DNA from: Candidatus Thorarchaeota archaeon | GTDB lineage: Archaea > Asgardarchaeota > Thorarchaeia > Thorarchaeales > Thorarchaeaceae | Assembly: GCA_046482545.1 (NCBI GenBank) | Contig: JAWOEX010000002.1 | Location: forward strand, 1 to 55,087 | Reading direction: 5' to 3' | Length of the DNA stretch: 55,087 nt | In this document: one piece after another, positions 8,673 through 55,087 of the stretch | Layout of the letters: every line of letters begins with the position of its first letter | How positions within the stretch are numbered: the stretch's first letter is position 1 | Notes under the pieces: generated by a model | Database searches by the model: none | Told to the model about the DNA's origin: nothing | What the model saw: the letters and a program-made list of their open reading frames with translations, nothing else | Made by a program: the position numbers and the translations under genes

Positions 8673-10904
8673 TTGAATGAATCGTTGAGTACTCTGAGAG
8701 AACTCGAATTTGAGCGTGCATCACCTCAATTGCTTGAGGTGTTGAGACGACAGGGTTTAGCTAGCCTCACAGGTTTCCAGACTGAAGCCTTGCATGGAGG
8801 TATCATGAGGGAAAACAATCAAATTTTAGTGACACATGATTATGATGAAGGTTATCAGATTGGCGAGATAGCTCTCCTAAATCGGGTCACATCTAATTTT
8901 CGAACTAGAGGCATTATCCTTTGTCCGCATCCACATCAAGCAGAGAAACGACTTCATTCGGTGGCCCAGAAATGTAGCAGACTAGGAATCGAGGTAACCC
9001 CAATAATAAGGCGGAGTGATGCAATCGATTTGCCACGAAATATGGGAGGGGTCATTGTGGCAACGTTTCGTTCGCTAAGCATAGCGGCAAGGAACCAACC
9101 ATCGCTGTGGGACAATGTGAGTTTCCTGCTAGTTGAGAGACTGGACCTTATAGGGCAACCAGGAGTCGGCGTGCACCTTGAAACATCTATAGTGAGTGGG
9201 ATGGCAAAGGGTCCTGAGATACAGTATGTTGCTTTATGTCCAGAAGTGGCAGATTTGCCTGATTTAGCAAAATGGCTTGACGCATCGATTCTCAAAGACG
9301 AGAAACCTGATGTAAACTCCATTTTCAGTGTAAAGGCATTCACAAGCATCACTGAATCTCTATCTGACCTAGCACAATATGTACACAAGAAGAAGGGGCA
9401 GGTGATTATCCTTGCGCCCGACATTTCGTCGTCTCAAGATTTGGCAGAGCAGTTGACAGGAGTAGATAGTGGTGAAAGCACACCGCATCTTGACCTCGGG
9501 TTGACTCTAGGACATCGAGATGAACTAAGAGATCTTTGCAAGCGAATAAAGAGTGTCCATCCCCGATGCAGGATGACACAGAGACTTGTGAATGTCCTCA
9601 GCAGAGGAGTTGCATTCTTCCATGAAGGAGTTGCCAGAAAGCAGAGAAGAGCCATATCAGCAGCTTGGGATGACAGACTGTTACCAGTAATAGTGATGCC
9701 TATACGATTTGCGCTGGCAAGCGGTATGACAGGCACGGTAGTCTTCTTGATTGGTGTCTTCGCACAAAAAAGAGAGAATATTGAGCGAAATGAAAAAGAT
9801 TTGGTTATGCTTTCAGAATGGCAGATGAATAATCTGTTACGAGCAGCCGGGAGAGCGAAGATTGATACTGAAGGATTTGGTATTGTAGTTGTCGATAATG
9901 AACAGGAAAGGCAGCGGGTTCTGTTGAAATATTTCAATAGTGGTGATGACGGAGAGTTACTGCCAAGACTCGGAGAGGTCGACAGCCTCATGGATAATCC
10001 CGAGAACCTTCAGTTTCTCGTTCTAGGACAGCTATGTACAGATGATGACCAAGAAAGGAAACCACTCTCAATCATCAATAAAACGTACTGGGCATCCACA
10101 AACAGAACATTCAGTCCGAAAGAGGAACGTTTTGTTCCGGTAGATGATATTTCGATTAATACATTGCTTTCGCTCAGGGCAACGAAATCCACACTGGAGC
10201 GAGCAGATACGATTGGAGATGAAGATGTCAAGATGGTCTCAGTCAACCCCTCCAAGATAGAAGGGCTTGTCCACAGCGCCAGCCGCGATCTCTGGCATTA
10301 TGTTATACTCAACTCCTCTGAAGGCGTATCTTGTAGCTGTGAATCGTGGAAGTACCAAGGAATGAAGAATCACAGATTATGCAAACACCTGGTAAAATTC
10401 GCCAAGTATGCACTACATGATAGTGAATCTAAACCATACGCGAGCGGAGTTTTGAGACATTCGTTAAGGGGGCTTGAGACTCTTGATGAAATGAGAAGGA
10501 GCGGCCTTGTAGAAAGGTATGGAGAAGAAGTCCGATGTACTGAACTCGGTAGGAGAGTTGCAGCATTGGGAGTTTCGATTGCCGATGCAAGAACAACAAA
10601 GAGAATAATCGAGAAGAGTAAAGGTAACTTCGTAAATACTCTAATCGAACTTGTAAGTACCAAGACAGGAGCTAGTTCGGAACAACTTAGGAGGATAGTC
10701 ACAGCTGTATCTGAAGGGGGTAACAAAGAGGATATGTACTGTGAGGACGATCTTCCAGGGCTCGTAGAGAACCATGTGGAGGAGTTAATCTACGTGAACT
10801 CTGTCTTAGAGCAGATGTTGATTGAAGACGAAGATGGGCTTCTCGAAGATAGACCCGTTGATTTGGGAGAGAAACTGAAACGCGGATTATCAGATATCGG
10901 TTGA
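8673..10904 (+). CDS. Hel308/Ski2-like SF2 helicase homolog with degenerate ATPase motifs and inserted SWIM zinc finger
   Basis: Q-motif region (LTGFQTEAL), GVAFFHEG, RAAGRAK, TELGRRV recognisable; Walker A and DExH absent; CSC-x13-CKH SWIM motif. Confidence 0.75.
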   Translation: MNESLSTLRELEFERASPQLLEVLRRQGLASLTGFQTEALHGGIMRENNQILVTHDYDEGYQIGEIALLNRVTSNFRTRGIILCPHPHQAEKRLHSVAQKCSRLGIEVTPIIRRSDAIDLPRNMGGVIVATFRSLSIAARNQPSLWDNVSFLLVERLDLIGQPGVGVHLETSIVSGMAKGPEIQYVALCPEVADLPDLAKWLDASILKDEKPDVNSIFSVKAFTSITESLSDLAQYVHKKKGQVIILAPDISSSQDLAEQLTGVDSGESTPHLDLGLTLGHRDELRDLCKRIKSVHPRCRMTQRLVNVLSRGVAFFHEGVARKQRRAISAAWDDRLLPVIVMPIRFALASGMTGTVVFLIGVFAQKRENIERNEKDLVMLSEWQMNNLLRAAGRAKIDTEGFGIVVVDNEQERQRVLLKYFNSGDDGELLPRLGEVDSLMDNPENLQFLVLGQLCTDDDQERKPLSIINKTYWASTNRTFSPKEERFVPVDDISINTLLSLRATKSTLERADTIGDEDVKMVSVNPSKIEGLVHSASRDLWHYVILNSSEGVSCSCESWKYQGMKNHRLCKHLVKFAKYALHDSESKPYASGVLRHSLRGLETLDEMRRSGLVERYGEEVRCTELGRRVAALGVSIADARTTKRIIEKSKGNFVNTLIELVSTKTGASSEQLRRIVTAVSEGGNKEDMYCEDDLPGLVENHVEELIYVNSVLEQMLIEDEDGLLEDRPVDLGEKLKRGLSDIG

Positions 10905-27782: not shown

Positions 27783-30437
27783 TTGAATACCATGGAAATA
27801 GAGACTCTACAGGAGAAACTGAAGGTCCTCAGTAACCGATATGCAATCAGAATTTTACAGGTGCTAAGCCCAAGAGAAGGAGGAGTGGTACGCAGTTGGG
27901 GCTGGGATGATTTAGCAAACGGAATCCTCCAGCTCCAAGGGTACTCACAGCCGAACACAGCGTATGAGGAGAAGACCGAGGTTCAAGCTCAGTACGAAAA
28001 AAGGAAAGCAAAGATAACTTCCGGAGGGACACTCTATGAGACAATGGCCAAACTCGTCGAAGAAGGATTGGTGCTTGAGGAAGGAGAGAGACGCAAGAAG
28101 AATCGTGCTTTCCGAATTACCCGAGAAGGCCGAATGACTCTTTCGGCCCTGCAGGCTATGGAGGGGTCACTTGGTGCAACAACAGAATTGCAGAAAACAG
28201 CAGAGAGGCTATTGAAGCATAAGAACTTCTTGGGGCTCCTTCCGGGTCAGCGGCAATTTCTTGTAGAAGTGAAGGATTTAAGTGGAAACATGGTCATTCA
28301 AATGGGATCTGGTGCTGGGAAGACGTTTCTTGCCATAATCCTCCTGCTTTCTCGAATTCGTGATGGGGCGAAGTGTGTATATTTGGCACCCTATACATCC
28401 CTTCTCCGGCAGATACTCGATGAATATGGTATGCTCTTTGAGCAACTCGGAATCGATGTCGCAAGGCTAGACGGAACAACTCGACCAACACATCAACAGC
28501 TGAAAAAAGCCGATCTTGTGGTTGCTATCTACGAATCCTTCCTCTCAGCAATGATGGCAAATCGCGCATGGACAAAAAGCATTGATTTGGCTGTAATCGA
28601 TGAGCTTACTGAGTTGGATGGAGGGAATCGATCACTTCGAGCACGATATCTGGGAAACGCCCGCAGCACCAGACTGGACTGTCTCATAGCAATTCTCAAA
28701 GAGCAGGCCAATCTTGTTACACTTTCCGCCAGATTTGGAGGCACCCAGAAAGTAGCAGAATGGCTAGATGCTGCAGTATTTCATCCCGACAGAGTTGTCA
28801 GGCCCGAGGAGTTCATTGTCAGCAGAGAAGATAATATACTCAGTATAGAAAGTAGCGACAACTCACAACAGTGGGAAGTAAAGTGCCAAGAGAACATTGA
28901 TGGAATTATTGATTACATTGGTGAATACAAAGATAAGTCCATTCTAATAGTTGTAGGATCCAGAGGGCGGACCGAAAATATCGCGAGACGCTTGGCAAAT
29001 AGGTATCCAAGAGAGATTGAATCTGAAACGGTGGATATGATAGTTGGAAAGGAGGGTAACATGCCAATCGTCCAACGACTCAACAGGAATCTCCGAAAGG
29101 GTGTAGCGTTTCATCACGCAGGTCTTGCATCGGATATCAGATGGCGGCTTGAAAGAAGCATAAAAGAACGAGAAATCAGAACCATTGTATCAACAACAGG
29201 TATTACTGCTGGCATGAGCTTTCCAATCGACATCATCATTATAGTCTTCGATAAATCCACTAGTTATATCGCATCTAGACCCCAGTATCTCCAGATTGCA
29301 GGCAGGATTGGCGAGTACCATCTCGTTGAGAAGGGTGGAGCAGTATATCTCATTCATGAAGAGCCAACAAGGGAACTAGAGGACCATGAAAGCTTGAGAT
29401 CGAAACTCTTGCTGTCACCTCTAGAACTGATTGAACCGTCGGAGATGTATCCCTCACTAATGTTGGGTCTTATTGCGATGATTGCGATGAATCTTCAGCA
29501 ATTCACCATTCAGGATATTCGACATGAGTTCGTGCAGTTGGTGCAGAGAACACTCAAGCATTTCTTGAACGAATCTTATCTCAACACGATGGAGCAAAGG
29601 TTCGACATATTGTTCGATTGGTTGCTAAATCAGGAAATTCTCTCAAAGAGTGAAAACACAATTGCACTAGTGGATGAGGCGAAAAAGGCAATCGAATCGG
29701 GAATGTACCTTATCGACTATGTTCTCCTACGAGATAAGATAATGAACCTATCAGAGAAGAGCACATTGGATGATCTGACGAGCGTACTCCTTCGTTTCAA
29801 TCTTGTTCAATTCCTGCGACCCACAACACGCTTTCCCGAAAAGATTGAATTGAAAACAATGGGGCTGGAGGAGCCAAGCGACTGGTACGCGGATCTAGTT
29901 GAGATGCGCAGCAGGGTGAAAAGAAAGGCAATTCTAGATTGGTCAAACGAACTGAAGATGCCAACTATTATCGAGAATTCTCACAACCTTGCTCAGGAAA
30001 TAAAGATTGGAGGGAAACCCGCAGCGGGGAGTGGACTTGCTGAAGGCGATTTGATTAGGCTTGTAGGAGTTTGTAGCAATCTTGCAGGTGGGATGAGCCG
30101 ATTCCTACGTGCTATTGGCAGGGTCAACTCTGCGGAACAAATGGAGATGTGTTCCGTACGCCTTAGATATGGTGTGAAGCCAGATTTGGCAAGGACAGAC
30201 CTCTTTGAGTTAGAAATACCAAGGGGTACAGAAGCACGGACTCTTACAAGAGAAGAAGCAAGAATACTCTACAACAGAGAATACAAATCAATCCATGACT
30301 TAGTTTTCAAGGATATCGACAGGAAGAAGGAAGGATATGCTAGAGAGCGCTTTGCACAAAATTGCGGTCTTGATGAAGACGAAGGGGTGAAGATCTACAA
30401 GGCTGCGCTCAAATATGTAAGAAGGCAAAATGAATGA
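27783..30437 (+). CDS. Ski2/Hel308-like SF2 helicase with N-terminal winged-helix domain
   Basis: GSGAGKT, IDEL, LSA, FHHAGL, TTGITAGMSFP, QIAGRIG; N-terminal wHTH pattern (TLYETMAKLVEEGLV...FRITREG). Confidence 0.85.
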   Translation: MNTMEIETLQEKLKVLSNRYAIRILQVLSPREGGVVRSWGWDDLANGILQLQGYSQPNTAYEEKTEVQAQYEKRKAKITSGGTLYETMAKLVEEGLVLEEGERRKKNRAFRITREGRMTLSALQAMEGSLGATTELQKTAERLLKHKNFLGLLPGQRQFLVEVKDLSGNMVIQMGSGAGKTFLAIILLLSRIRDGAKCVYLAPYTSLLRQILDEYGMLFEQLGIDVARLDGTTRPTHQQLKKADLVVAIYESFLSAMMANRAWTKSIDLAVIDELTELDGGNRSLRARYLGNARSTRLDCLIAILKEQANLVTLSARFGGTQKVAEWLDAAVFHPDRVVRPEEFIVSREDNILSIESSDNSQQWEVKCQENIDGIIDYIGEYKDKSILIVVGSRGRTENIARRLANRYPREIESETVDMIVGKEGNMPIVQRLNRNLRKGVAFHHAGLASDIRWRLERSIKEREIRTIVSTTGITAGMSFPIDIIIIVFDKSTSYIASRPQYLQIAGRIGEYHLVEKGGAVYLIHEEPTRELEDHESLRSKLLLSPLELIEPSEMYPSLMLGLIAMIAMNLQQFTIQDIRHEFVQLVQRTLKHFLNESYLNTMEQRFDILFDWLLNQEILSKSENTIALVDEAKKAIESGMYLIDYVLLRDKIMNLSEKSTLDDLTSVLLRFNLVQFLRPTTRFPEKIELKTMGLEEPSDWYADLVEMRSRVKRKAILDWSNELKMPTIIENSHNLAQEIKIGGKPAAGSGLAEGDLIRLVGVCSNLAGGMSRFLRAIGRVNSAEQMEMCSVRLRYGVKPDLARTDLFELEIPRGTEARTLTREEARILYNREYKSIHDLVFKDIDRKKEGYARERFAQNCGLDEDEGVKIYKAALKYVRRQNE

Positions 30438-30443
30438 GGCAAT

Positions 30444-30950
30444 CTATCTGGTTTTGCCGAACTGCCAGAGTTCATCGTTAACGTGATGGTGAGAGAGTAC
30501 TACTTTACCACTTTCCGCAGCACGCATTTTTTCAGCATCCATCGTGGCTACACCGATAGCAAGTGGCTTCCCATGACGCTCGTCGACTATTGCCACTACT
30601 TGGCCTTCTTCCACGTCATCGTCCACAGAGACAACACCCGGTGCCATTATATCTGCACCGTTAGCTACGAATTTCACCGCGCCCATGTCAACTGTAACTT
30701 CAGAAATATCAACGATGCCACTCAGGAGAGCACGTAAAGTTGGGTAGAGTGTATCTTTCTCCTCCCAGAATACGATTTCGCCGTTTAATAGAAGCACTCG
30801 CGAATCATCATCCAATATCCCTTCTTCGAAACGGTCTTCGCCGAGATTCTGTACGGAAGACCCCAAAATAGTCCTGATACGTTGTAGTTCTTCCTTGTGT
30901 TCAGTTTTTTTGAGCAAATGGCGCCGCTTGATTCGTTCGAAACTTGGCAT
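30444..30950 (-). CDS. DUF1947+PUA RNA-binding protein (MCTS1/Tma20-like)
   Basis: YPTL, VTVDMGAVKFVANGADIMAPGV, HHVNDELW. Confidence 0.92.
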   Translation of the reverse strand: MPSFERIKRRHLLKKTEHKEELQRIRTILGSSVQNLGEDRFEEGILDDDSRVLLLNGEIVFWEEKDTLYPTLRALLSGIVDISEVTVDMGAVKFVANGADIMAPGVVSVDDDVEEGQVVAIVDERHGKPLAIGVATMDAEKMRAAESGKVVLSHHHVNDELWQFGKTR

Positions 30951-31093
30951 GGTATCATCCCATGCGGAGATGGGCTTTTGAAGGCTACGAAATCGGTCTA
31001 GGTTATATCACCTGTACATTCTTAAGAAGAAAACAGACCTGCCCGCAAAGGTCGGGTTTAATAGGCCTACGGAAGTTTCTCGCTTAGTGATAT

Positions 31094-31354
31094 ATGTTGA
31101 ATGCTGGTAAACCTATGAAAGTTTTGGATGAATCTATTGGTGCCCAGGTTTTGGTGGAGCTAAGACGGCAGCGAAAGATTCGAGGAAAATTGCTCAGCTA
31201 TGACCAGCACCTCAACTTGCATCTTGAAGATGCAGATGAAATCACTACGGACCTAGAAAATGGAAAGGACACAATCAAAGAAATAGGCAATGTAATCCTG
31301 CGAGGGGATAATGTAGTTGTTGTGAGCCCAACCCCGCAGAGGGCTAGAGAATAG
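31094..31354 (+). CDS. Sm-like (Lsm) protein
   Basis: GKLLSYDQHLNLHL, ILRGDNVV. Confidence 0.95.
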   Translation: MLNAGKPMKVLDESIGAQVLVELRRQRKIRGKLLSYDQHLNLHLEDADEITTDLENGKDTIKEIGNVILRGDNVVVVSPTPQRARE

Positions 31355-31472
31355 GTTTTCTCCTAGGTGTAGATGTTCAGTAAACAACGTTTTTAAACCA
31401 AGACTCACGAGCTCATCTCAGTAGCTCGGAGTAGCATGTTCCGATATATGATTCGAATCTGAAGTGGCAACT

Positions 31473-31661
31473 ATGGGTAAAGGAACTCCAGCCAAAGGTA
31501 AGAAAGGCAAGACAACTCACATCCGCTGTAGAAGATGTGGTAGAAGATCATACAACGTCAAGAAGAAGCGCTGTGCTGCCTGTGGGTTTGGTGCTTCCAG
31601 CAAGATGAGAGACCCATCTTGGTCCAACCACAAGAAAGTCAACGGGACACGCGTACACTGA
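31473..31661 (+). CDS. rpl37e: Ribosomal protein L37e
   Basis: [19 protein letters not shown]...CAACGFG. Confidence 0.96.
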
Positions 31662-31834
31662 AAATAGACAATTTTCGCGTTTGGTTGACCAATTCAAGTA
31701 AGGATGCTATTTTCCGCCTCCCCATCATCCATTATTGATGGCATTAAACAGAGAATCAGAACAACAAATCTACCAAGAAGGTATAGGTCACATCAGCTCT
31801 CCTTTTCCAAAACCACGCTACAAAAAATGATTGA

Positions 31835-31940
31835 GATGCTGAGAATGGAGGCACGCTTTCTGTGAGGTTCCGACTCAAATCTGGGCGATTGTAGGTACAG
31901 CACGAATCATACTTTCGCCCTGCTCGCCTCGGACAGTAGT
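31835..31940 (+). repeat. Palindromic intergenic repeat, copy A (full)
   Basis: GATGCTGAGAATGGAGGCACGCTTTCTGTGAGG...GCACGAATCATACTTTCGCCCTGCTCGCCTCGGACAGTAGT. Confidence 0.9.
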
Positions 31941-31985
31941 GGCGGCGAAGGAGTACTATACATTCTGATGAGCAATCCCGGCTGA

Positions 31986-32408
31986 TTATTCAAGAAACTG
32001 CAGATCATCATCAAGCATGCCAGTCTCCGTAGCGCGGACAATTTCCGCTTCTCTCCGAGCAAAAACCGCTAGACCATCCAGTACACGGGATGCAGCGACG
32101 GTGAAACAGTCAGGCAGAGAAATTGCAACTCGGCATTTGATCTTTGCATCTTCTCCCCAGACAATCCCTGTAGGAATGATTTGCACGACAGATGACTGGA
32201 TTAGGTTCTCTGTTTCATTCAAAGCGGACATCCAATCCAGTTTCCTGCAAATGATGGACGTGAATTCACTTAGAGCAAGCTCTGTGCAGGCGTAACGGTT
32301 TTCTTCTGAAGACATCTCTTTTGCAAGAGGTTTTGCAGATGGTTCACCGAGCGCCAGCGCAATCAAAACACCTGCATCAAGAACTAAGGCTTGTTGGACC
32401 TCACCCAT
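31986..32408 (-). CDS. VapC/PIN-domain toxin (family 1, copy a)
   Basis: LVLDAGVLIA, E, SLPDCFTVA PIN pattern; overlaps upstream small gene. Confidence 0.88.
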   Translation of the reverse strand: MGEVQQALVLDAGVLIALALGEPSAKPLAKEMSSEENRYACTELALSEFTSIICRKLDWMSALNETENLIQSSVVQIIPTGIVWGEDAKIKCRVAISLPDCFTVAASRVLDGLAVFARREAEIVRATETGMLDDDLQFLE

Positions 32409-32643
32409 TATCAAGGCGCCTCTCGGAGATGAGATCGTTATAGGCAGATTTGAAAGCCACTCCATGTAGTGGGGTAATGAATTCAGTCCAAGCTTCAATG
32501 TCGACTTTCTGCTTGTCGTAGACATCGACTAGTGCCTGAATTACCGTATCGAAGTCAACACGCTCTTGGTTTTTCTGTTGAATCTCACCAGCAATTCTCA
32601 ACAGTTCCCGGCGAGTCGCCTCTTTGATTGATATGGTTGTCAT
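32401..32643 (-). CDS. Putative VapB-type (RHH-like) antitoxin (family 1, copy a)
   Basis: MTTISIKEATRRELL...DFDTVIQAL; 8-bp overlap with PIN gene. Confidence 0.8.
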   Translation of the reverse strand: MTTISIKEATRRELLRIAGEIQQKNQERVDFDTVIQALVDVYDKQKVDIEAWTEFITPLHGVAFKSAYNDLISERRLDNG

Positions 32644-32701: not shown

Positions 32702-32951
32702 AATTCGTTTTTTCAGTATAGGGCATCAAGAGAAACCGAAATAATACAGATTTCGGCATAATCCGGGTCGGAAGTGTAAGATAGCTGTAATTTCCTCAAG
32801 ATCCGTTCATGACTGAAGACAAGAGGATTTTATTAGATCAGCTACGAGACTCCCTTTCAGTAGGGCTAGGCAAGTGGGCTAGTGCGGTAGCGCGAAGCAC
32901 ACCCAGCATTTGAGAGAGTAATTTTATCTATCCTTTTCTTATTTCAGACAT

Positions 32952-34088
32952 ATGGTCAAATTCAAGGGTTTTCAGTTCTCTATAAGCGAGTTCGCCGGAA
33001 GCTTGGGCGACTTCGGAACATTGATGCCATTCACGGTTGGTTACATAGTCCTCTGCGGCTTCAAACCCACAGGGCTAATGTTAGGGATTGGACTGACCAA
33101 TATACTCCTAGGCCTCATCTACAACCTCCCCTTGCCAGTCCAACCTCAGAAAGTGATTGGGACGGTAGCTCTAGCTGAGAAGTGGGCCATGAGACGGGTT
33201 CTCGGAGCAGGGTTCGCCGTAGGGTTAATCTGGGTGATATTATCATTATCAGAAAGGCTCAGGGACATCTTGGAGAGAATTCCCAGCAGCGTAGTCAGGG
33301 GGATCCAATTAGGTTTGGCCTTCTCTCTCGCTCTGACCGCGGGCAGTATGATGGAAGATAGTCTAATTCTTTCTTTGGCAGTCTTGGCTCTGGGACTGCT
33401 ACTTCTCCGAAGCAGATACCTCCCATCCGCCATATTCCTGATGCTTTTCGGATTCATCTATGCAACAGTAACGGGAAACCTCAATCTAGGACAGATAACA
33501 ATAGGCCTGTCACTACCAGAGGTAACCCTCTTCTCCCTAGGCGACATGGTCTATGGATTCCTCTATGCAGGCTTAGCTCAGATATTCCTGACACTGACTA
33601 ACGCTGTGGTATCAACAGTAGCCCTTATACATGAGCTATTCCCCGATAGAAAAGATGTCACTCCCCGGAAGCTGATAGCCAACATGGGAGCCATAGATAC
33701 CACTACCCCCTTCATAGGAGGGATGCCACTATGCCATGGAACTGGAGGGTTGGCGGCGCAATATCTCTTCGGTGCGAGAACTGGAGGATCTATGCTGATT
33801 GAGGGCGTTATAGAGATAAGCCTTGGATTATTCTTCTCCAATAGTCTTCAAACAATATTCGAAGCTTTTCCCGACTTCATCATAGGTGTGATGTTACTAT
33901 TAACCTCACTCGAACTTGGCAGGATTGCATTCAAGATAGAGAAAAAGAATGAGATACCCGTGCTGCTATTTACAGCGTTGATATCCACCGTCCTGAATAT
34001 TGCATACGGATTCATGGCAGGAATACTACTCTACTTAGCACTGAAAAAAGACATAGTAAAACTTGAACCAGAGAAAACCAAGACATGA
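32952..34088 (+). CDS. Putative molybdate/sulfate transporter (MOT1-like)
   Basis: EFAGSLGDFGT, PLPVQPQK, MPLCHGTGGLAAQYLFGAR; multiple TMs. Confidence 0.88.
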   Translation: MVKFKGFQFSISEFAGSLGDFGTLMPFTVGYIVLCGFKPTGLMLGIGLTNILLGLIYNLPLPVQPQKVIGTVALAEKWAMRRVLGAGFAVGLIWVILSLSERLRDILERIPSSVVRGIQLGLAFSLALTAGSMMEDSLILSLAVLALGLLLLRSRYLPSAIFLMLFGFIYATVTGNLNLGQITIGLSLPEVTLFSLGDMVYGFLYAGLAQIFLTLTNAVVSTVALIHELFPDRKDVTPRKLIANMGAIDTTTPFIGGMPLCHGTGGLAAQYLFGARTGGSMLIEGVIEISLGLFFSNSLQTIFEAFPDFIIGVMLLLTSLELGRIAFKIEKKNEIPVLLFTALISTVLNIAYGFMAGILLYLALKKDIVKLEPEKTKT

Positions 34089-34195
34089 ATCCTATGTTTT
34101 GTAGATTATCGCCTAAAGATCATTGTTTGTGGTAAGTAGCATTACATATAATGGATTAGCAGGGGAAGGGTGGAACACAGAAGCTTCATGCAGTT

Positions 34196-34366
34196 GAGTG
34201 AACCCAACTGTAGGCACCTCATCAAGGACATAATCAGTTGTTATGCGCATTCCGTACTCTGGTTGCTTCAGTTTTGTGAGAGGTCCTTAGCTCTGGTATG
34301 ATTCTTATCACGTGAGTTGAGGTATGCAATGATAACATTGCTGTCTAAGATAACGGCCACGTTCAG
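34196..34366 (-). pseudogene. VapC/PIN toxin remnant (family 2, decayed copy)
   Basis: High nucleotide similarity to the 5' part of 41421-41852; start TTG>CTG, 1-nt deletion near 34285, 3' two-thirds missing. Confidence 0.85.
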
Positions 34367-34374
34367 CTGCCACC

Positions 34375-34650
34375 CTAAACGATTTCATCCACTCTTGATG
34401 AGAGGTTCTCACTGCTAGGTCCCAAGTCCTCGGCCAAGGAGAGAACCTCTTGGATGGTCTTATCGGTCAGGGGAACTTCGCCCGCCTGTATTTCACTAAC
34501 GATACGATCGTAGTTTTCCGTGCCGATTTTGAACACCAGTTCCAGGATTTCCTTCTTGGTGAACCACTTTCCGGTATCAAGATAAACGCGAGCCTGTAGC
34601 TCTTCCAAATCAGCTTGTAGGTCAAACGTCACTGTTGACACTGGACACAC
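34375..34650 (-). CDS. Antitoxin (family 2, copy with premature stop removing YGGS)
   Basis: Near-identical to 41849-42136; TAT>TAG change four codons before the paralog's stop. Confidence 0.75.
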   Translation of the reverse strand: MCPVSTVTFDLQADLEELQARVYLDTGKWFTKKEILELVFKIGTENYDRIVSEIQAGEVPLTDKTIQEVLSLAEDLGPSSENLSSRVDEIV

Positions 34651-34668: not shown

Positions 34669-34783
34669 AAATTGTATACAGGTCTGTAGAAGTTTCTGGG
34701 ATTCCTATAAGAGATGAGATAACAAGATAGAGGGGGCACGCATTCGAGTCTATTAGCCAAAGTAGTATTGTAGAAGACGCGAT

Positions 34784-34828
34784 ATGTTGAGGAATGAGGG
34801 GCGCTTTCTCTGAGGGGCAGACTCAAAG
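34784..34828 (+). repeat. Palindromic repeat, copy B (left arm only)
   Basis: ATGTTGAGGAATGAGGGGCGCTTTCTCTGAGGGGCAGACTCAAAG. Confidence 0.85.
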
Positions 34829-34937
34829 CTCGAATGTGTGAGGCATTATCTCATCAAGATTCAGATTCCAAATCTATATGAGGTTTAGCACTGAATTGTG
34901 CACAAGTCCGTACGTAATCTTGGGGCGCGCAGCAAAT

Positions 34938-35438
34938 ATGGATAAAGACCACAAAATCACAGGATACCTCATACCGGTGTGTATCGTCATCAGTACGCTC
35001 TTCACACCATATGCCGTCCAAGAATATCGAACAATGATTTTTGCTCATGGATTTATCTGGTATTTTCCGTTCTGGAGATTTTACAATGGCTATGATGAAA
35101 GAGGTACGTTCGCATTTGTCAGAACATTTGGAATGGGATTTCCTTTTGTTCAGCTGGAACCACTGATTACGGGCGTGATTCTTGGAACAGGGATGGTCCT
35201 AGCAGGAATTATGCGAGTAGTAGTAAATGACAGCAACAAGTATTCTATGGAATTGGCTTCAGTAATCGCAGCGTTGATAATCGAAATTGGTATGCCAATT
35301 CTTGCAACACTAACTATGGAAACCGATATGGCACCCTCGTTCTTAACGGGGTTGGTGCCTGTTCCAATCCCTGCTATACTTGCAATCATTGGACTTGTCT
35401 ACATTCATAGAGGTAGGGTTGATTCTCATTCGCTTTGA
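34938..35438 (+). CDS. Hypothetical multi-pass membrane protein
   Basis: About 4 hydrophobic segments, C-terminal VPVPIP; start set at MDKDH. Confidence 0.7.
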   Translation: MDKDHKITGYLIPVCIVISTLFTPYAVQEYRTMIFAHGFIWYFPFWRFYNGYDERGTFAFVRTFGMGFPFVQLEPLITGVILGTGMVLAGIMRVVVNDSNKYSMELASVIAALIIEIGMPILATLTMETDMAPSFLTGLVPVPIPAILAIIGLVYIHRGRVDSHSL

Positions 35439-36705
35439 TACAAATGAGACCTCTAACTATGGTTATACATACTCATCGAACTTCCCCACAGTCGATGCAT
35501 ATAATTCAACCCTCGGTGGATCACCGGACTGTTTTGTGACCAAGCTTGCAAGTGATGGCCAGTCACTTGTTTATTCCACATTCCTAGGAGGGGGAAGCAA
35601 TGAATGGGGACAGAGTATTGCGGTTCAAGATGGCTATGCTTATGTCACGGGCTTCACGTACTCATCAGACTTTCCCACCGTCAATGCATATGATTCGACG
35701 CATAATGGTAGTAGTGACTTTCTCGTGACCAAGATTGCAACTGATGGGCCGTCACTGACTTATTCCACCTATCTAGGAGGTAATAATGATGATGAAGGGC
35801 AGGATATTGCAGTTGAAAATGGCCATACCTATGTCACGGGCTACACATGGTCATCAGATTTTCCCACCACCAGTGCCTACAATTCGACTCACGGGGGCAA
35901 TAGAGACTGTGTCGTAGCAATCCTTTCTCAGGACAGCGATTCCGATGGATTGCTGGACTGGGAAGAGGATATTTTCTACGATTGTGACCCGTATTGCATT
36001 GACACGGACAACGACAATTTCCTTGATGGCTATGAAGTAGAGTATGATACCAACCCGACAAATCCAGCAGAGTACCCAGCCATGCCACAGGTATGGTACG
36101 ATAAAATCTACGAGAACCTTGATGGGAATGCAACCCTGCTTCAGCAAGTACTTTCTTGGCTTGACGGAAACCATAGAGCCATCGAGACGCTGTTCACGTA
36201 CGTGGAAGGAAATGCCACGCTTCTGCAGGAGGCAGTTGTTGCTCTGGATGGAAATGCAACCCAATTGGGCCTCGTCGCGGCTCTGGCAACAGACAATCAA
36301 GAATGGTTACAGAGTCTCAATTCCACAGCGATTGGAAACATCACTGAAATCAGAGAGGTGCTTGACCAACTAGGCGTAACTGTTGGCGATACTGATTGTA
36401 ACGGGCTTGATGACCTAGATGAGATCGCTGAGGGCACAGATATTCAGTGCATAGATACCGACTGCGATAACCTGAACGATGCCTATGAAATCGAAATAGG
36501 TACCGATCCCTTGGAGAAAGACACAGACCAAGACGGTTATGACGATGGCCATGAGATTATGAGCGGAACTAATCCGCTTGATGCTGCGGACCACCCCGGA
36601 ACGGGAGTATCGACTGTCATATTGGCAATGGCCGGTACTGCTGCGATTGTCGTTTTGATAGCAATCGTCCTGTTCATTTTGTGGAAGCAAAGAGCGAGCA
36701 GCTAG
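35380..36705 (+). CDS. N-terminally truncated SBBP beta-propeller repeat protein with DxDxDG (TSP3-like) Ca-binding repeats, coiled segment and C-terminal TM anchor
   Basis: Repeats YVTGxTxSSDFPT..AY.STH.G..D, DSDSDGLLDWEE, DTDQDGYDDG, hydrophobic tail plus KQR; similarity begins mid-repeat at about 35461, no signal peptide. Confidence 0.75.
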   Translation: MQSLDLSTFIEVGLILIRFDTNETSNYGYTYSSNFPTVDAYNSTLGGSPDCFVTKLASDGQSLVYSTFLGGGSNEWGQSIAVQDGYAYVTGFTYSSDFPTVNAYDSTHNGSSDFLVTKIATDGPSLTYSTYLGGNNDDEGQDIAVENGHTYVTGYTWSSDFPTTSAYNSTHGGNRDCVVAILSQDSDSDGLLDWEEDIFYDCDPYCIDTDNDNFLDGYEVEYDTNPTNPAEYPAMPQVWYDKIYENLDGNATLLQQVLSWLDGNHRAIETLFTYVEGNATLLQEAVVALDGNATQLGLVAALATDNQEWLQSLNSTAIGNITEIREVLDQLGVTVGDTDCNGLDDLDEIAEGTDIQCIDTDCDNLNDAYEIEIGTDPLEKDTDQDGYDDGHEIMSGTNPLDAADHPGTGVSTVILAMAGTAAIVVLIAIVLFILWKQRASS

Positions 36706-36709
36706 AGAT

Positions 36710-36758
36710 AGTCATACATTCCGTCTGCCCGCCTAGGACAGTACTAGCGGTGAGCTGA
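36710..36758 (+). repeat. Palindromic repeat, copy C (right arm only)
   Basis: AGTCATACATTCCGTCTGCCCGCCTAGGACAGTACTAGCGGTGAGCTGA. Confidence 0.85.
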
Positions 36759-36778
36759 AAACTCAACGATAGAGAATT

Positions 36779-36916
36779 TCATCGCTTCTTGATATAGACA
36801 CCGACTATGACCACCACTACACCTATCGCGGCACCAGCCCCAAGTACGGACAGCATCGGGTCTATTCCTTCAGGGTTTGTTGTTCCGGTGGTTGTAGTTG
36901 GTATTGTTGCAGGAAA
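36779..36916 (-). pseudogene. Orphan C-terminal Thr-rich linker plus TM anchor remnant
   Basis: Manual translation FPATIPTTTTGTTNPEGIDPMLSVLGAGAAIGVVVVIVGVYIKKR*. Confidence 0.75.
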
Positions 36917-37132
36917 TCTTACAGAAATCTTACACTTTTGCACTCGGATTTTCAGAATTTTTGTAAAACTCGCATAATCATGATTCCACTCCCTACGAGC
37001 GTGTTACTAGGTATGCTTCTTGTAGGATTCTATGACCCTCGGACAGAAAACGAGTCCTTCAATGATCTAGATGAAACATGAGCGAACGGAAACGGGAGAA
37101 ATCGCAGTGCGCTTTCAGTTCTGCTTGTTCGG

Positions 37133-41397: not shown

Positions 41398-41420
41398 TCG
41401 CTCTGCTCGCCTCGGACAGT
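41398..41420 (+). repeat. Palindromic repeat, copy E (right end only)
   Basis: TCGCTCTGCTCGCCTCGGACAGT abutting the vapC stop codon. Confidence 0.8.
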
Positions 41421-41852
41421 CTATCTATTGGACACTAAGGGCACAAGTCCATCAAAATCAGAATCGTAAGTTGCCAAGTACTCGATATCGTTCTTGTCCA
41501 TAAATGCGATGATACAACAGTCTGTAAAGCTCAATGGTTTCTCAGGCCAGCTTGCGAGCGTCATCCATTTTTCCCAAGCTATGTCAAGGGTATCAAACCC
41601 GACACGGGCGAACTTGATAAAATCAGGTCTGTGGCAAATGAGGTAGTATGCCTTTTCTACAATGGATTTTTGGTGAGTGTGATTCCATAATGTAGTAAGC
41701 ACTTCATCGAGGACGTAGTCAATTGTTATGCGCGTGCCATACTCCGGCCTCTTCAGTTTTGTGAGAAGATTTCTAGCTCTGGTATGATTCTTATCACGTG
41801 AGTTGAGCAACGCAATTATGACATTGCTATCTAAGAAGACAGCCACATTCAA
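41421..41852 (-). CDS. VapC/PIN toxin (family 2, intact)
   Basis: VFLDSNVIIA, DYVLDE, LSFTDC, LATYDSDF. Confidence 0.92.
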   Translation of the reverse strand: MNVAVFLDSNVIIALLNSRDKNHTRARNLLTKLKRPEYGTRITIDYVLDEVLTTLWNHTHQKSIVEKAYYLICHRPDFIKFARVGFDTLDIAWEKWMTLASWPEKPLSFTDCCIIAFMDKNDIEYLATYDSDFDGLVPLVSNR

Positions 41853-42136
41853 CTGCCACCATATACAATTTCATCGACTCTTGATGAAAGGTTCTCACTG
41901 CCAGGGCCCAAGTCTTCGGCTAAGGAGAGAATCTCTTGGATCGTCTCATCAGTCAAGGGAACTTCTCCCGCCTGTACTTCGCTAACAATACGATTGTAGT
42001 TCTCCGTGCCGATTCTGAATGCCAGTTCCAGAATGTCCTTTTTGGTGAGCCGCTTTCCAGTATCAAGATAAAGGCGAGATTGGAGCTCTTCCAAATCATC
42101 CTGCAAGTCAAACTTCACCGTTGACATGTTGGGCAC
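41849..42136 (-). CDS. Putative antitoxin (family 2, intact)
   Basis: Small gene overlapping the PIN start by 4 bp; C-terminal SSRVDEIVYG. Confidence 0.8.
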   Translation of the reverse strand: MPNMSTVKFDLQDDLEELQSRLYLDTGKRLTKKDILELAFRIGTENYNRIVSEVQAGEVPLTDETIQEILSLAEDLGPGSENLSSRVDEIVYGGS

Positions 42137-42219
42137 ACCCAGTAACTAAGTTACCGAATTAATATATAAACCTGTAGAAATTGTGCGCGTCCAGACAAAA
42201 GTGGGAAGAACGCAATACA

Positions 42220-42308
42220 CTGAGGGGGATATTGCTTTCTTGAGGCTCAGACCAAATCTGACAGCTCTAGGTGCAGCATGAGCCATACTTTCAGTCTGTC
42301 GCCTCGGA
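42220..42308 (+). repeat. Palindromic repeat, copy F (near full)
   Basis: CTGAGGGGGATATTGCTTTCTTGAGGCTCAGACCAAATCTGACAGCTCTAGGTGCAGCATGAGCCATACTTTCAGTCTGTCGCCTCGGA. Confidence 0.9.
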
Positions 42309-42399
42309 AATCACGAACAGTAGGAAACAACCAATAGATGAAAATCGTACTTCGACCACAAAGAACAAGATTGAATATACTTTGTTGCCGTAGTTTAGA

Positions 42400-49632: not shown

Positions 49633-50045
49633 ATTATTCGCGTTGTTATCGGAGTTGAACATGTATGTTGCTTCCTAAGAAATAGTAAGCAAAGAAATAT
49701 CTATATGAGACAGAGATTCTCTGGACCATGTACACACATTACAGTCTTTGCTGCACCTGAAATTACTAATCAGAAAGCGATTCCCTTCGTTTGAGAGAAA
49801 TTTGCTTCTATTCCTTCTAGAACAAGCCCTAAACACAAAGCTAATTGATCTCTGATTTCTTTCGAATGAAAATGACAACTGCAACAGCCATCAATGCGAA
49901 GGTAACCCAGAAGAATGGATTCCGAAGGAAATGCAGTATAGGGGGGAGGCTCAGGCATAACGGCGACGCTTTCGAACTAGGTCGAGGAGGTGTTCAGTCT
50001 CCAAGGTTGATGCAACTATTAATATTAGGAAACCAATGCCGACTT

Positions 50046-50249
50046 ATGCCAATTGTCAAAGTCAAGTTATGGGAAGGCGTATCGAAGGATGCTGTAGAAC
50101 GCATAATATCCGGAATTACTGATGTCTTTGTTGAAATAGGGATTCCGGAGCGAGCTGTTGAAATAGTTGTTCAAGAAATCCCGAAATCCCACTGGGGAGT
50201 AGGGGGCAAACCGGCTTCAAAGGCTATGCCAGACGAGGAACCGCCATAA
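50046..50249 (+). CDS. 4-oxalocrotonate tautomerase family protein
   Basis: MPIVKV (catalytic Pro1), ITDVFV, EIPKSHWGVGG. Confidence 0.9.
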   Translation: MPIVKVKLWEGVSKDAVERIISGITDVFVEIGIPERAVEIVVQEIPKSHWGVGGKPASKAMPDEEPP

Positions 50250-50280
50250 GATTCTCAGACAGTTAGATTTGATGCGTCAC

Positions 50281-51193: not shown

Positions 51194-51395
51194 GTTATGA
51201 GAATTATTTTGTGTTTACTGTAATAAACATAATGACTGTGTCTTACACAGATAATGTCAAATAATTGGTAGCATCCACAATAAACAGATCACAAATAGAT
51301 GCTCACGTCATCATCTACCTTGTTTGCCCTAACGTGGATTTCACTTCCATCCCGATATGGAATTTCGACGCAGTTCCAATCCCCCACTACCACAT

Positions 51396-51474
51396 CACAT
51401 CTTGACAACTCTGGGTGCAGCACGAGTCATACTTTCGGTCTGCTCGCCTCGGACAGTAGTAGCGGTGAGCTGAA
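51396..51474 (+). repeat. Palindromic repeat, copy I (centre and right arm)
   Basis: CACATCTTGACAACTCTGGGTGCAGCACGAGTCATACTTTCGGTCTGCTCGCCTCGGACAGTAGTAGCGGTGAGCTGAA. Confidence 0.9.
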
Positions 51475-51491
51475 CACCTAGCTGTGAGAGA

Positions 51492-51600
51492 TTATCGACA
51501 TTTCTTTGAAAATACAACCACTAAGACTATGGCTAACCTTATCGCAGGAGCGGCTGCGGCAACGAACCACATCGAGAGTTAGCCTTCAAATTCGTCTGTT
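51492..51600 (-). pseudogene. Second orphan C-terminal TM anchor remnant
   Basis: TDEFEG*LSMWFVAAAAPAIRLAIVLVVVFSKKCR*; same position relative to the repeat as 36779-36916. Confidence 0.55.
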
Positions 51601-54715: not shown

Positions 54716-55055
54716 ACTGTGTAGGATACTAGATTTAGATAATATAAGGCCTCCAAGGTCGCGCTAGAAGCCGCCAAGAGCCCCAATCTAAGCCATTTCT
54801 GAATCCAAGGAAGAAACAACTTGGAAAAAGACCAAATACTGCAAAGTCTAATCTAAACATTCGGACAATAATTCATAATGGATAATGCGACAGGAAAGTA
54901 CCAGAAAAGGCGAATTGGTAGTGAAGACAATAGCCATGTACAGAACATGGTTTTACCGTTCCACAAAGCACAGCTATGAAGGTTTCTAAAGTGAAAATCA
55001 AGACAGAGCTCGATCTATTATTTATGGCCCCTTCAATGCGAAGAACAATTGAGAA

Positions 55056-55087
55056 ATGCTGAGGATGGAGGTACTGCTTTTCTGAGG
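55056..55087 (+). repeat. Palindromic repeat, copy J (left arm, cut by window end)
   Basis: ATGCTGAGGATGGAGGTACTGCTTTTCTGAGG, nearly identical to copy H start. Confidence 0.9.

Follow-up and report, generated by a model that had tools for sequence, protein, structure and literature searches.

The stretch of DNA that we analysed, 55087 nt from a Candidatus Thorarchaeota archaeon (hereafter the window), carries a repeat of ~120-200 nt that occurs ten times from position 31.8 kb onward. Two of these copies, B and C, are incomplete and enclose two genes. In the initial annotation it was proposed that B and C are two halves of one element that was opened by an insertion, and that partial copies of the repeat share a preferred crossover or insertion point. 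We thus asked what the repeat is, if B and C were once one copy and if the breakpoints of the partial copies reveal a defined site.

The repeat derives from the 3' end of the 23S rRNA gene and its trailer, of which it is a spare copy; it is neither a hairpin element nor the symmetric two-armed repeat that had initially been described. The genome contains a single 23S rRNA gene, which is found at the end of contig C2 (80561-83864, Rfam LSU match). All repeat copies align to C2:83790-83998, where the strand of the 23S rRNA gene corresponds to the minus strand of the window. They correspond, in reverse complement, to the final ~40-60 nt of the gene and to a trailer of ~130 nt. The native tail is located at C2:83791-83998 and is contiguous with the mature 23S 3' end at 83864. 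No Rfam family matched in the window, and none matched a copy of the mini-transposon described below.

In archaea, the processing stem of the pre-23S rRNA carries a bulge-helix-bulge (BHB) motif, which is cut by EndA, and circularisation follows. The native copy shows the leader-trailer helix and the 3-4-3 BHB expected for such a stem (cf. PMC12918454). The trailer (83869-83953) is predicted to pair with the 5' leader (80473-80552), with a co-folding energy of -99 kcal/mol. Co-folding furthermore predicts a BHB of a 3-nt bulge, a 4-bp helix and a 3-nt bulge between trailer positions 83885-83891 and leader positions 80530-80536 (trailer bulge 83889-83891, helix 83885-83888, leader bulge 80534-80536). 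According to this prediction, half of the BHB site is found on the trailer strand of the pre-23S processing stem, and it is this strand to which the repeat corresponds. In contrast to the native copy, the spare tails have neither a leader partner nor an rRNA, and thus the motif cannot form; B and C do not contain any BHB-coding bases.

With a profile built from four copies, we detected ~35 repeat copies in the 3.05-Mb genome. The spare tails, about 33 in number, all have one orientation and form an array of ~75 kb or more. The copies are confined to contigs C32, C13, C17, C18, C19 and C45 and to the ends of C2 and C31, with a uniform orientation within each contig. They start at native positions between 83798 and 83902 and are separated by blocks of one to five accessory genes in either orientation. 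Exact overlaps of 191 nt join C32 to C17 and C17 to C13, with an alternative join of C32 to C45. The array begins at the 23S rRNA gene at the end of C2, continues through C13 and C17 and reaches the window, where copy A is its terminus. The window is the far end of the array, and the 23S direction runs from position 55087 down to copy A. To the left of copy A are core genes that encode LSM, a PUA-domain protein and a helicase. The copies in the window include the following (proximal refers to the 23S side):

31783-31948, minus strand: copy A, a full spare 23S tail, the last of the array (native C2 83833-83993)
39177-39244, minus strand: copy D, a proximal-only spare tail (native 83846 to ~83906)
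41398-41420, minus strand: a tail fragment of 23 nt (native 83844-83866)
42214-42324, minus strand: copy E, a full spare tail that adjoins an intact VapBC module paralogous to the module of B
51393-51484, minus strand: copy I, a proximal-only spare tail preceded by a remnant of a surface-gene 3' end (native 83817 to ~83905)
55040-55087 (also given as 55052-55087), minus strand: H', a tail copy cut by the contig end that continues on C17 and C45

Copy H' had been counted as a left-only copy. This is an effect of the assembly, as the contig ends there: the last 191 nt of the window are 100% identical to C17 and to the reverse complement of C45, and both hold the rest of H'.

The region between B and C was resolved into the following features:

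34754-34832, minus strand: copy B, the distal half of a spare tail, with GGGCAGAC at 34815-34822 (native ~83897-83975)
34833-35457, plus strand: cargo piece 1 with ORF1 (34878-35438; likely start ATG at 34938), a multi-pass membrane protein of no known family
35458-36709, plus strand: cargo piece 2 with ORF2, a 5'-truncated surface-protein gene with its stop at 36703-36705
36710-36763, minus strand: copy C, the proximal half of a spare tail, with GTCTGCCC at 36723-36730 (native 83823-83876)

As initially described, B holds only the left and C only the right part of the repeat, around two plus strand ORFs (34878-35438 and 35380-36705; ~1.9 kb in all). Copy C was recovered with an nhmmer E-value of 9e-10 and comprises 42 nt from the end of the 23S rRNA gene and 12 nt of the trailer; its nearest relatives are copy I and the C17-type copies. 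Copy B extends over 34754-34827 according to nhmmer and to ~34832 by eye. It is divergent, with 74% ungapped identity to copy A, and its nearest relatives are A and E. The divergence of B is much greater than that of C, which scores 35 bits over 54 nt compared to 12 bits over 74 nt for B.

Two pieces make up the composite cargo. The gene of the first piece, ORF1, is a genuine archaeal membrane-protein gene with homologues of 39-54% identity in other genera, none of which lies beside an ORF2-like gene. No ORF1 homologue was found in the two congeners and no ORF1 relative in metagenome contigs. A contig of run X4, from an unrelated microbial mat, is 97% identical along ORF1 and departs after 35457, 19 nt past the stop codon. 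ORF2 encodes SBBP beta-propeller repeats, TSP3 repeats and a C-terminal membrane anchor, and it overlaps ORF1 out of frame. An ORF2 homologue is also present on contig C85 of the related genome G001, where the contig stops short of the 3' end of the gene.

The cargo has no transposon ends and does not qualify as a transposon or MITE insertion. The best terminal inverted repeat at the cargo junctions had a score of 12, which was reached by 6% of shuffles and by 15% of random genomic windows. No direct repeat of at least 6 nt, as expected for a target-site duplication, was found at the junctions; instead of being duplicated, ~20-25 nt of the tail are missing.

The neighbourhood of B and C includes cassettes that recur elsewhere in the array and in two genomes of the same genus (G001 and G002):

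31986-32643, minus strand: a PIN toxin and a small antitoxin-like ORF, paralogous to the module beside copy F (76% DNA identity)
32952-34088, plus strand: an MFS_MOT1 molybdate-transporter-like gene inside a block that is 96-99% identical to contig C108 of G002
34150-34215, plus strand: a remnant of the RNA 3' end of a ~560-nt aCas1-TnpB mini-transposon family, abutting the truncated PIN gene
34210-34650, minus strand: a VapB-like antitoxin (34375-34650, 91 aa) and the first ~160 nt of a truncated PIN toxin
36779-36906, minus strand: the 3' end of a truncated surface-protein gene (~42 codons, which encode the C-terminal membrane anchor)
36907-36983, minus strand: a remnant of the same aCas1-TnpB mini-transposon family, here of its promoter end and oriented oppositely to 34150-34215

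The VapB/PIN module beside B is 84% identical to 41695-42158 and has 84% DNA identity to positions 9777-10257 of contig C84 in G001, and its antitoxin has 88% protein identity to the antitoxin on that contig. Homologues of the surface-gene end beside C occur on C17, C19 and C45 and on G001:C84 and G002:C143, and each is followed by a tail copy that starts at native 83805-83818. Full or partial relatives of this gene precede tails on C17, C19 and C45, at copy I and in G001 and G002. We also considered an inversion between the two mini-transposon remnants. This was rejected, as B and C are oriented like the rest of the array and the left remnant is also present in G002, within the block of 96-99% identity. 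The terminal hairpin of the mini-transposon resembles the tail core by chance (nhmmer E of ~6-9), and its loop varies between copies.

Were B and C once one copy? Following the 23S direction, C comes first, then the cargo and then B, and the native ranges of the two copies do not overlap. This is the arrangement expected of a single tail that was cut mid-way. Together, B and C amount to one tail that lacks ~20-25 nt, and the missing part includes the BHB helix and bulge. Furthermore, a similar neighbourhood with an unbroken tail exists in G001. There, contig C84 contains a 298-aa surface-protein gene (stop at 9609), an intact tail at 9616-9769 (native 83818-83971) and a VapB/PIN pair at 9821-10535, that is, the same kinds of neighbours in the same order as around B and C. 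The flanks in G001 are only 73-84% identical and both types of cassette are multi-copy, and such a shared neighbourhood could have arisen independently with a chance of about 1 in 9. In G002, a full tail on contig C108 precedes the orthologous antitoxin/MOT1 block, which is 96-99% identical to window positions 32727-34426.

Both the common origin of B and C and the manner of their separation are our inferences from this arrangement. We prefer the explanation that they are one spare tail that was broken by a non-homologous insertion; it is unproven, and our confidence in it is somewhat better than even. The original tail would have been located between a surface-protein cassette and a VapBC toxin-antitoxin cassette, with C as its proximal and B as its distal piece. 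Its middle would have been opened by a non-homologous, end-joining-like insertion or replacement. The incoming DNA would have been a 1.9-kb patchwork of an intact membrane-protein gene and a 5'-truncated surface-protein gene, and the ~20-25 nt with the part encoding the BHB helix and bulge would have been lost at the break. Such damage would be tolerated in a spare tail, as it has no rRNA to process.

Several observations count against a common origin. The two copies have diverged to unequal extents and have different nearest relatives, and no empty allele was found. Furthermore, a pair of this kind could arise by chance. In the three genomes, a proximal-only copy precedes another copy in 11 cases, and only in the case of B and C do the two not overlap. 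However, ~10-13% of all copies (about one in eight to ten) start in the zone just past the end of C, and thus chance predicts about one apparent split pair among the 11. The search for an empty allele, which had been suggested as a check, did not support the proposal: no joints of an unbroken B+C allele were present in the contigs of four public runs, and a scan of two public collections (metagenomes and genomes) with an exact pattern found none. As contigs hide rare variants and the search pattern demanded exact arms, the missing allele is weak negative evidence. Run X3, from another study, contains the same junction between B and the cargo with 100% identity. We detected no donor lineage for the divergent copy B in 86 genomes of the family. 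The initial proposal of two halves opened by an insertion is therefore backed by the order, the orientation, the fit and the parallel in G001, whereas the missing empty allele, the composite cargo and a chance of about 1 in 10 weaken it.

A different history is possible, to which we assign a distinctly lower probability: B and C could be remnants of two different spare tails that were joined by a deletion. C would then be a proximal-only copy such as D and I, and B would be a distal-only copy such as the copy at C18:1306. A single deletion would have taken the 5' part of ORF2, the intervening tail and the DNA behind ORF1, and the junction between ORF1 and ORF2 at 35457/35458 could be its scar. 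Partial copies are indeed common, with 17 proximal-only and ~13 distal-only copies among 81. The truncated ORF2 that overlaps ORF1 out of frame, the ORF1 homologues in other genera that have no ORF2 neighbour and the X4 contig that departs at 35457 all agree with a deletion at this junction, and the unlike divergence and relatives of B and C and the single pair predicted by chance agree with two source tails. However, this history requires three separate events, whereas two are sufficient for an insertion into one tail. It also leaves two coincidences, namely the near-exact fit between the end of C and the start of B, and the order of surface-protein gene, intact tail and VapBC in G001.

To analyse the breakpoints, we placed 81 copies from the present genome (G000) and from G001 and G002 on native coordinates. 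The start points of 78 copies form a smooth distribution from native 83790 to 83909 that peaks at 83830-83859, and most copies end at 83940-83999. The proximal-only copies have 17 ends: five at 83866-83876 (of which three represent one inherited event), eight at 83890-83906 and four at 83919-83925. A crossover or insertion point near CAAA/TC had been proposed from four copies. The described starts of D (CCAAATC) and I (CACATC) were confirmed. H', which also belongs to the four, reflects an end of the assembly. An excess does exist in this zone: 15 of 27 independent internal breakpoints fall into 22 nt (83885-83906) of the 79-nt trailer, where 7.5 are expected. This excess beside the BHB-coding core is about two-fold, for a zone that was picked after seeing the data. 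The proposed histogram of the endpoints of partial copies, applied to the three genomes, thus gave a mixed result: five independent proximal-only copies, D and I among them, end at 83902-83906, whereas the endpoints as a whole span more than 100 nt across the 81 copies.

One explanation for this excess is a defined site of recombination or cleavage near CAAATC (native ~83885-83906), which lies immediately 3' of the bases that encode the BHB. Here, a dedicated enzyme would cut the core (CAAATCTTGACAACTCTAGGT on the window strand) preferentially, be it a homing nuclease, an integrase that escaped recognition or an RNA-guided TnpB/aCas1 element; foreign DNA would be captured, and B/C, D and I would be the products. 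We consider such a site improbable, and we rate preferential cutting of the core, for which TnpB/aCas1 could be the agent, just as low. If it were true, the rRNA tails would be a targeted platform for gene capture and B/C, D and I would be its footprints. The five ends at 83902-83906 come from three genomes, and three distal-only copies start exactly at 83885. Moreover, the genome has TnpB genes, on contigs other than that of the window, and dozens of aCas1-TnpB mini-transposons, of which two remnants flank the B-C region. However, even within the post hoc zone the breakpoints scatter across 20 nt. No core is common to the shortest tail segments that were retained (83846-83866, and 83895 onward), and thus one crossover site cannot explain all copies. 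The cargo has neither a target duplication nor terminal repeats, and no recombinase and no Pfam Cas1 was found in this genome. Outside the array, guide-like matches to any tail copy in this genome were limited to 14-17-mers at chance level, with none of guide length. We regard the excess as modest and local and not as a defined site, and the support for a preferred crossover or insertion point as weak. In more genomes, this statistic could separate plain recombination and decay from targeted capture.

The split between B and C is, in our preferred reading of one tail broken by an insertion, an ordinary scar, which implies that tails can be broken without a sign of site-specific chemistry. This reading also drops the false lead of a two-armed hairpin and establishes where the array ends and in which direction it runs.

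The segments GGGCAGAC and GTCTGCCC are indeed exact 8-bp complements, as initially noted. This is weak as evidence for pairing, since six of the eight bases pair with GCAGAC, which is the conserved 23S end. The segment of B forms complementary runs of 6-7 with 22 of 41 other copies, and the two additional complementary bases result from one substitution in C. Copy E, beside the paralogous VapBC module, has a similar segment (CTCAGAC compared to GGCAGAC in B). Among the 41 full copies, complementarity within a copy is not greater than between copies, and there is no covariation within the same copy. The interpretation of the complement as a pairing of arms was therefore abandoned. A self-folding two-armed element (an attC-like site, a MITE or a structured RNA) whose arms in B and C stayed compatible across the insertion is very unlikely: the 8-bp complement, the CTGAGG/CCTCGG found in most copies and the integron-like layout point to it, whereas both strands of four copies folded individually no better than shuffles (z of -2.3 to +1.2, most not beyond -1.6), no Rfam family matched, no IntI and no R/L box or GTTRRRY architecture was seen, and the sequence is a 23S tail whose pairing partner is the 5' leader.

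When comparing the array to known systems, we find similarities with three of them. Tandem genomic islands occur at the 3' ends of tRNA and tmRNA genes as Islander-type tDNA islands (PMC4383910). As in these, blocks of foreign genes are stacked behind a stable-RNA gene, with every block delimited by a direct copy of this gene's 3' end; the start points of the boundary copies vary, and the intact gene is found at one end of the array. However, the anchor here is the 23S rRNA with its processing-stem trailer and not a tRNA or tmRNA, no island with an integrase was found in the three genomes of the genus, the blocks are small (1-7 kb) and some copies, such as B/C, are broken mid-way.

Integrons, including archaeal integrons (Ghaly et al. 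2022, PMC9668308), likewise have a long array of repeats in the same orientation that separate small accessory cassettes rich in toxin-antitoxin pairs, and their cassettes are common to related species. The array here differs from integrons as it has no IntI and no attC architecture, its repeat is a copy of an rRNA gene tail, and its blocks contain several genes in both orientations. We tested for an integron and rejected it. The tyrosine recombinase family PF00589 had no match in G000 (98.9% complete), G001 and G002, whereas all 14 control genomes were positive. Neither GTTRRRY nor RYYYAAC boxes were present in the alignment of the repeats, the folds equalled those of shuffles and the arms showed no covariation.

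The third system is the additive flexible genomic island, a concept reportedly introduced by Rodriguez-Valera and colleagues for islands that are exchanged by homologous recombination. In both cases, cassettes that vary between strains or species occupy one chromosomal spot and are apparently swapped by ordinary recombination. The homology anchors in our array differ in that they are repeated copies of the rRNA tail inside the island.

The array is thus unusual in its setting: dozens of spare 23S tails divide accessory genes in Asgard archaea in which we detected neither tyrosine nor serine recombinases (three genomes of the genus, 96-99% complete). The array may turn over by ordinary homologous recombination, which would take place between one tail and another and likewise between cassette genes that are paralogues. 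Partial tails would then be scars of occasional non-homologous joins and deletions and not marks of one defined site. The smooth spread of start points, the cargo without significant terminal repeats, the exchange between species and the missing recombinases fit ordinary homologous recombination with sloppy joins; a dedicated, unrecognised enzyme that acts on the array is possible. The exchange is visible in the MOT1 block, which is 96-99% identical over 1.7 kb between G000 and G002, whereas core genes of the two species are ~76% identical. The edges of this block fall inside cassette genes and not at tails.

Between the Thorarchaeota genome under study (G000) and the same-genus genome G002, the block at window 32727-34426 is 96-99% identical to G002:C108, compared to 76% for the core genes of the same two species (window 28501-31659). 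The antitoxin is less similar (88-91%), and the adjoining PIN module falls to 77-84%. Such a mosaic of sequence identities suggests that the species exchanged DNA recently.

The edge of the array of tail copies (spare 3' ends of the 23S rRNA gene with trailer) on the core side could be compared to both same-genus genomes. In G001 (C86) and G002 (C144), a region orthologous to the one around a tRNA gene in G000 (C14, from 16519 downward) follows about 140 nt past the LSM-side core. This neighbourhood is broken in G000 (window 31659-31783 and C14:16413-17048), where copy A, the last copy of the array, occupies the spot, and a small insert that carries a tautomerase paralogue of window 50002-50250 adjoins the tRNA.

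Within the array, one family of surface-protein genes, which share a conserved anchor at the C-terminus, repeatedly precedes tail copies that start at native positions 83805-83823 (numbered on the 23S contig, C2). Its members are found at:

Window 51485-51557
Window 36779-36906
C17:11184-12149
C19
C45

Three of the five such gene/tail units in G000 have shrunk to the last codons of the gene and a tail that keeps only its 23S-side part. Across the spare copies, native 83906-83913 is hypervariable. The predicted pre-23S processing stem of G000 (C2:80473-80552 with 83869-83953) is about 80 bp long and contains a canonical 3-4-3 bulge-helix-bulge motif.

The Phage_integrase family (PF00589) had zero matches across the whole genomes of G000, G001 and G002 (96-99% complete), which is unusual among archaea; with this model, a XerA-type recombinase thus also goes undetected.

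The assembly graph forks within a tail copy at the end of the window's contig, as window 54897-55087 matches both C17:1-191 and the reverse complement of C45:4172-4362 in exact overlaps of 191 nt. Either differences between strains or a collapsed repeat within the array could account for this fork.

Lastly, two oppositely oriented remnants of an aCas1-TnpB mini-transposon bracket the region comprising the toxin-antitoxin genes, partial copies B and C, and the cargo between them. The + strand remnant corresponds to the RNA 3' end of the family's unit of about 560 nt, and the - strand remnant to its promoter end. Dozens of copies of the family are present in G000. The two remnants and two of the copies lie at:

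Window 34150-34215 (+), remnant
Window 36907-36983 (-), remnant
C18:4620-5190, full copy inside the array
C2:78842-79301, copy just upstream of the 23S gene
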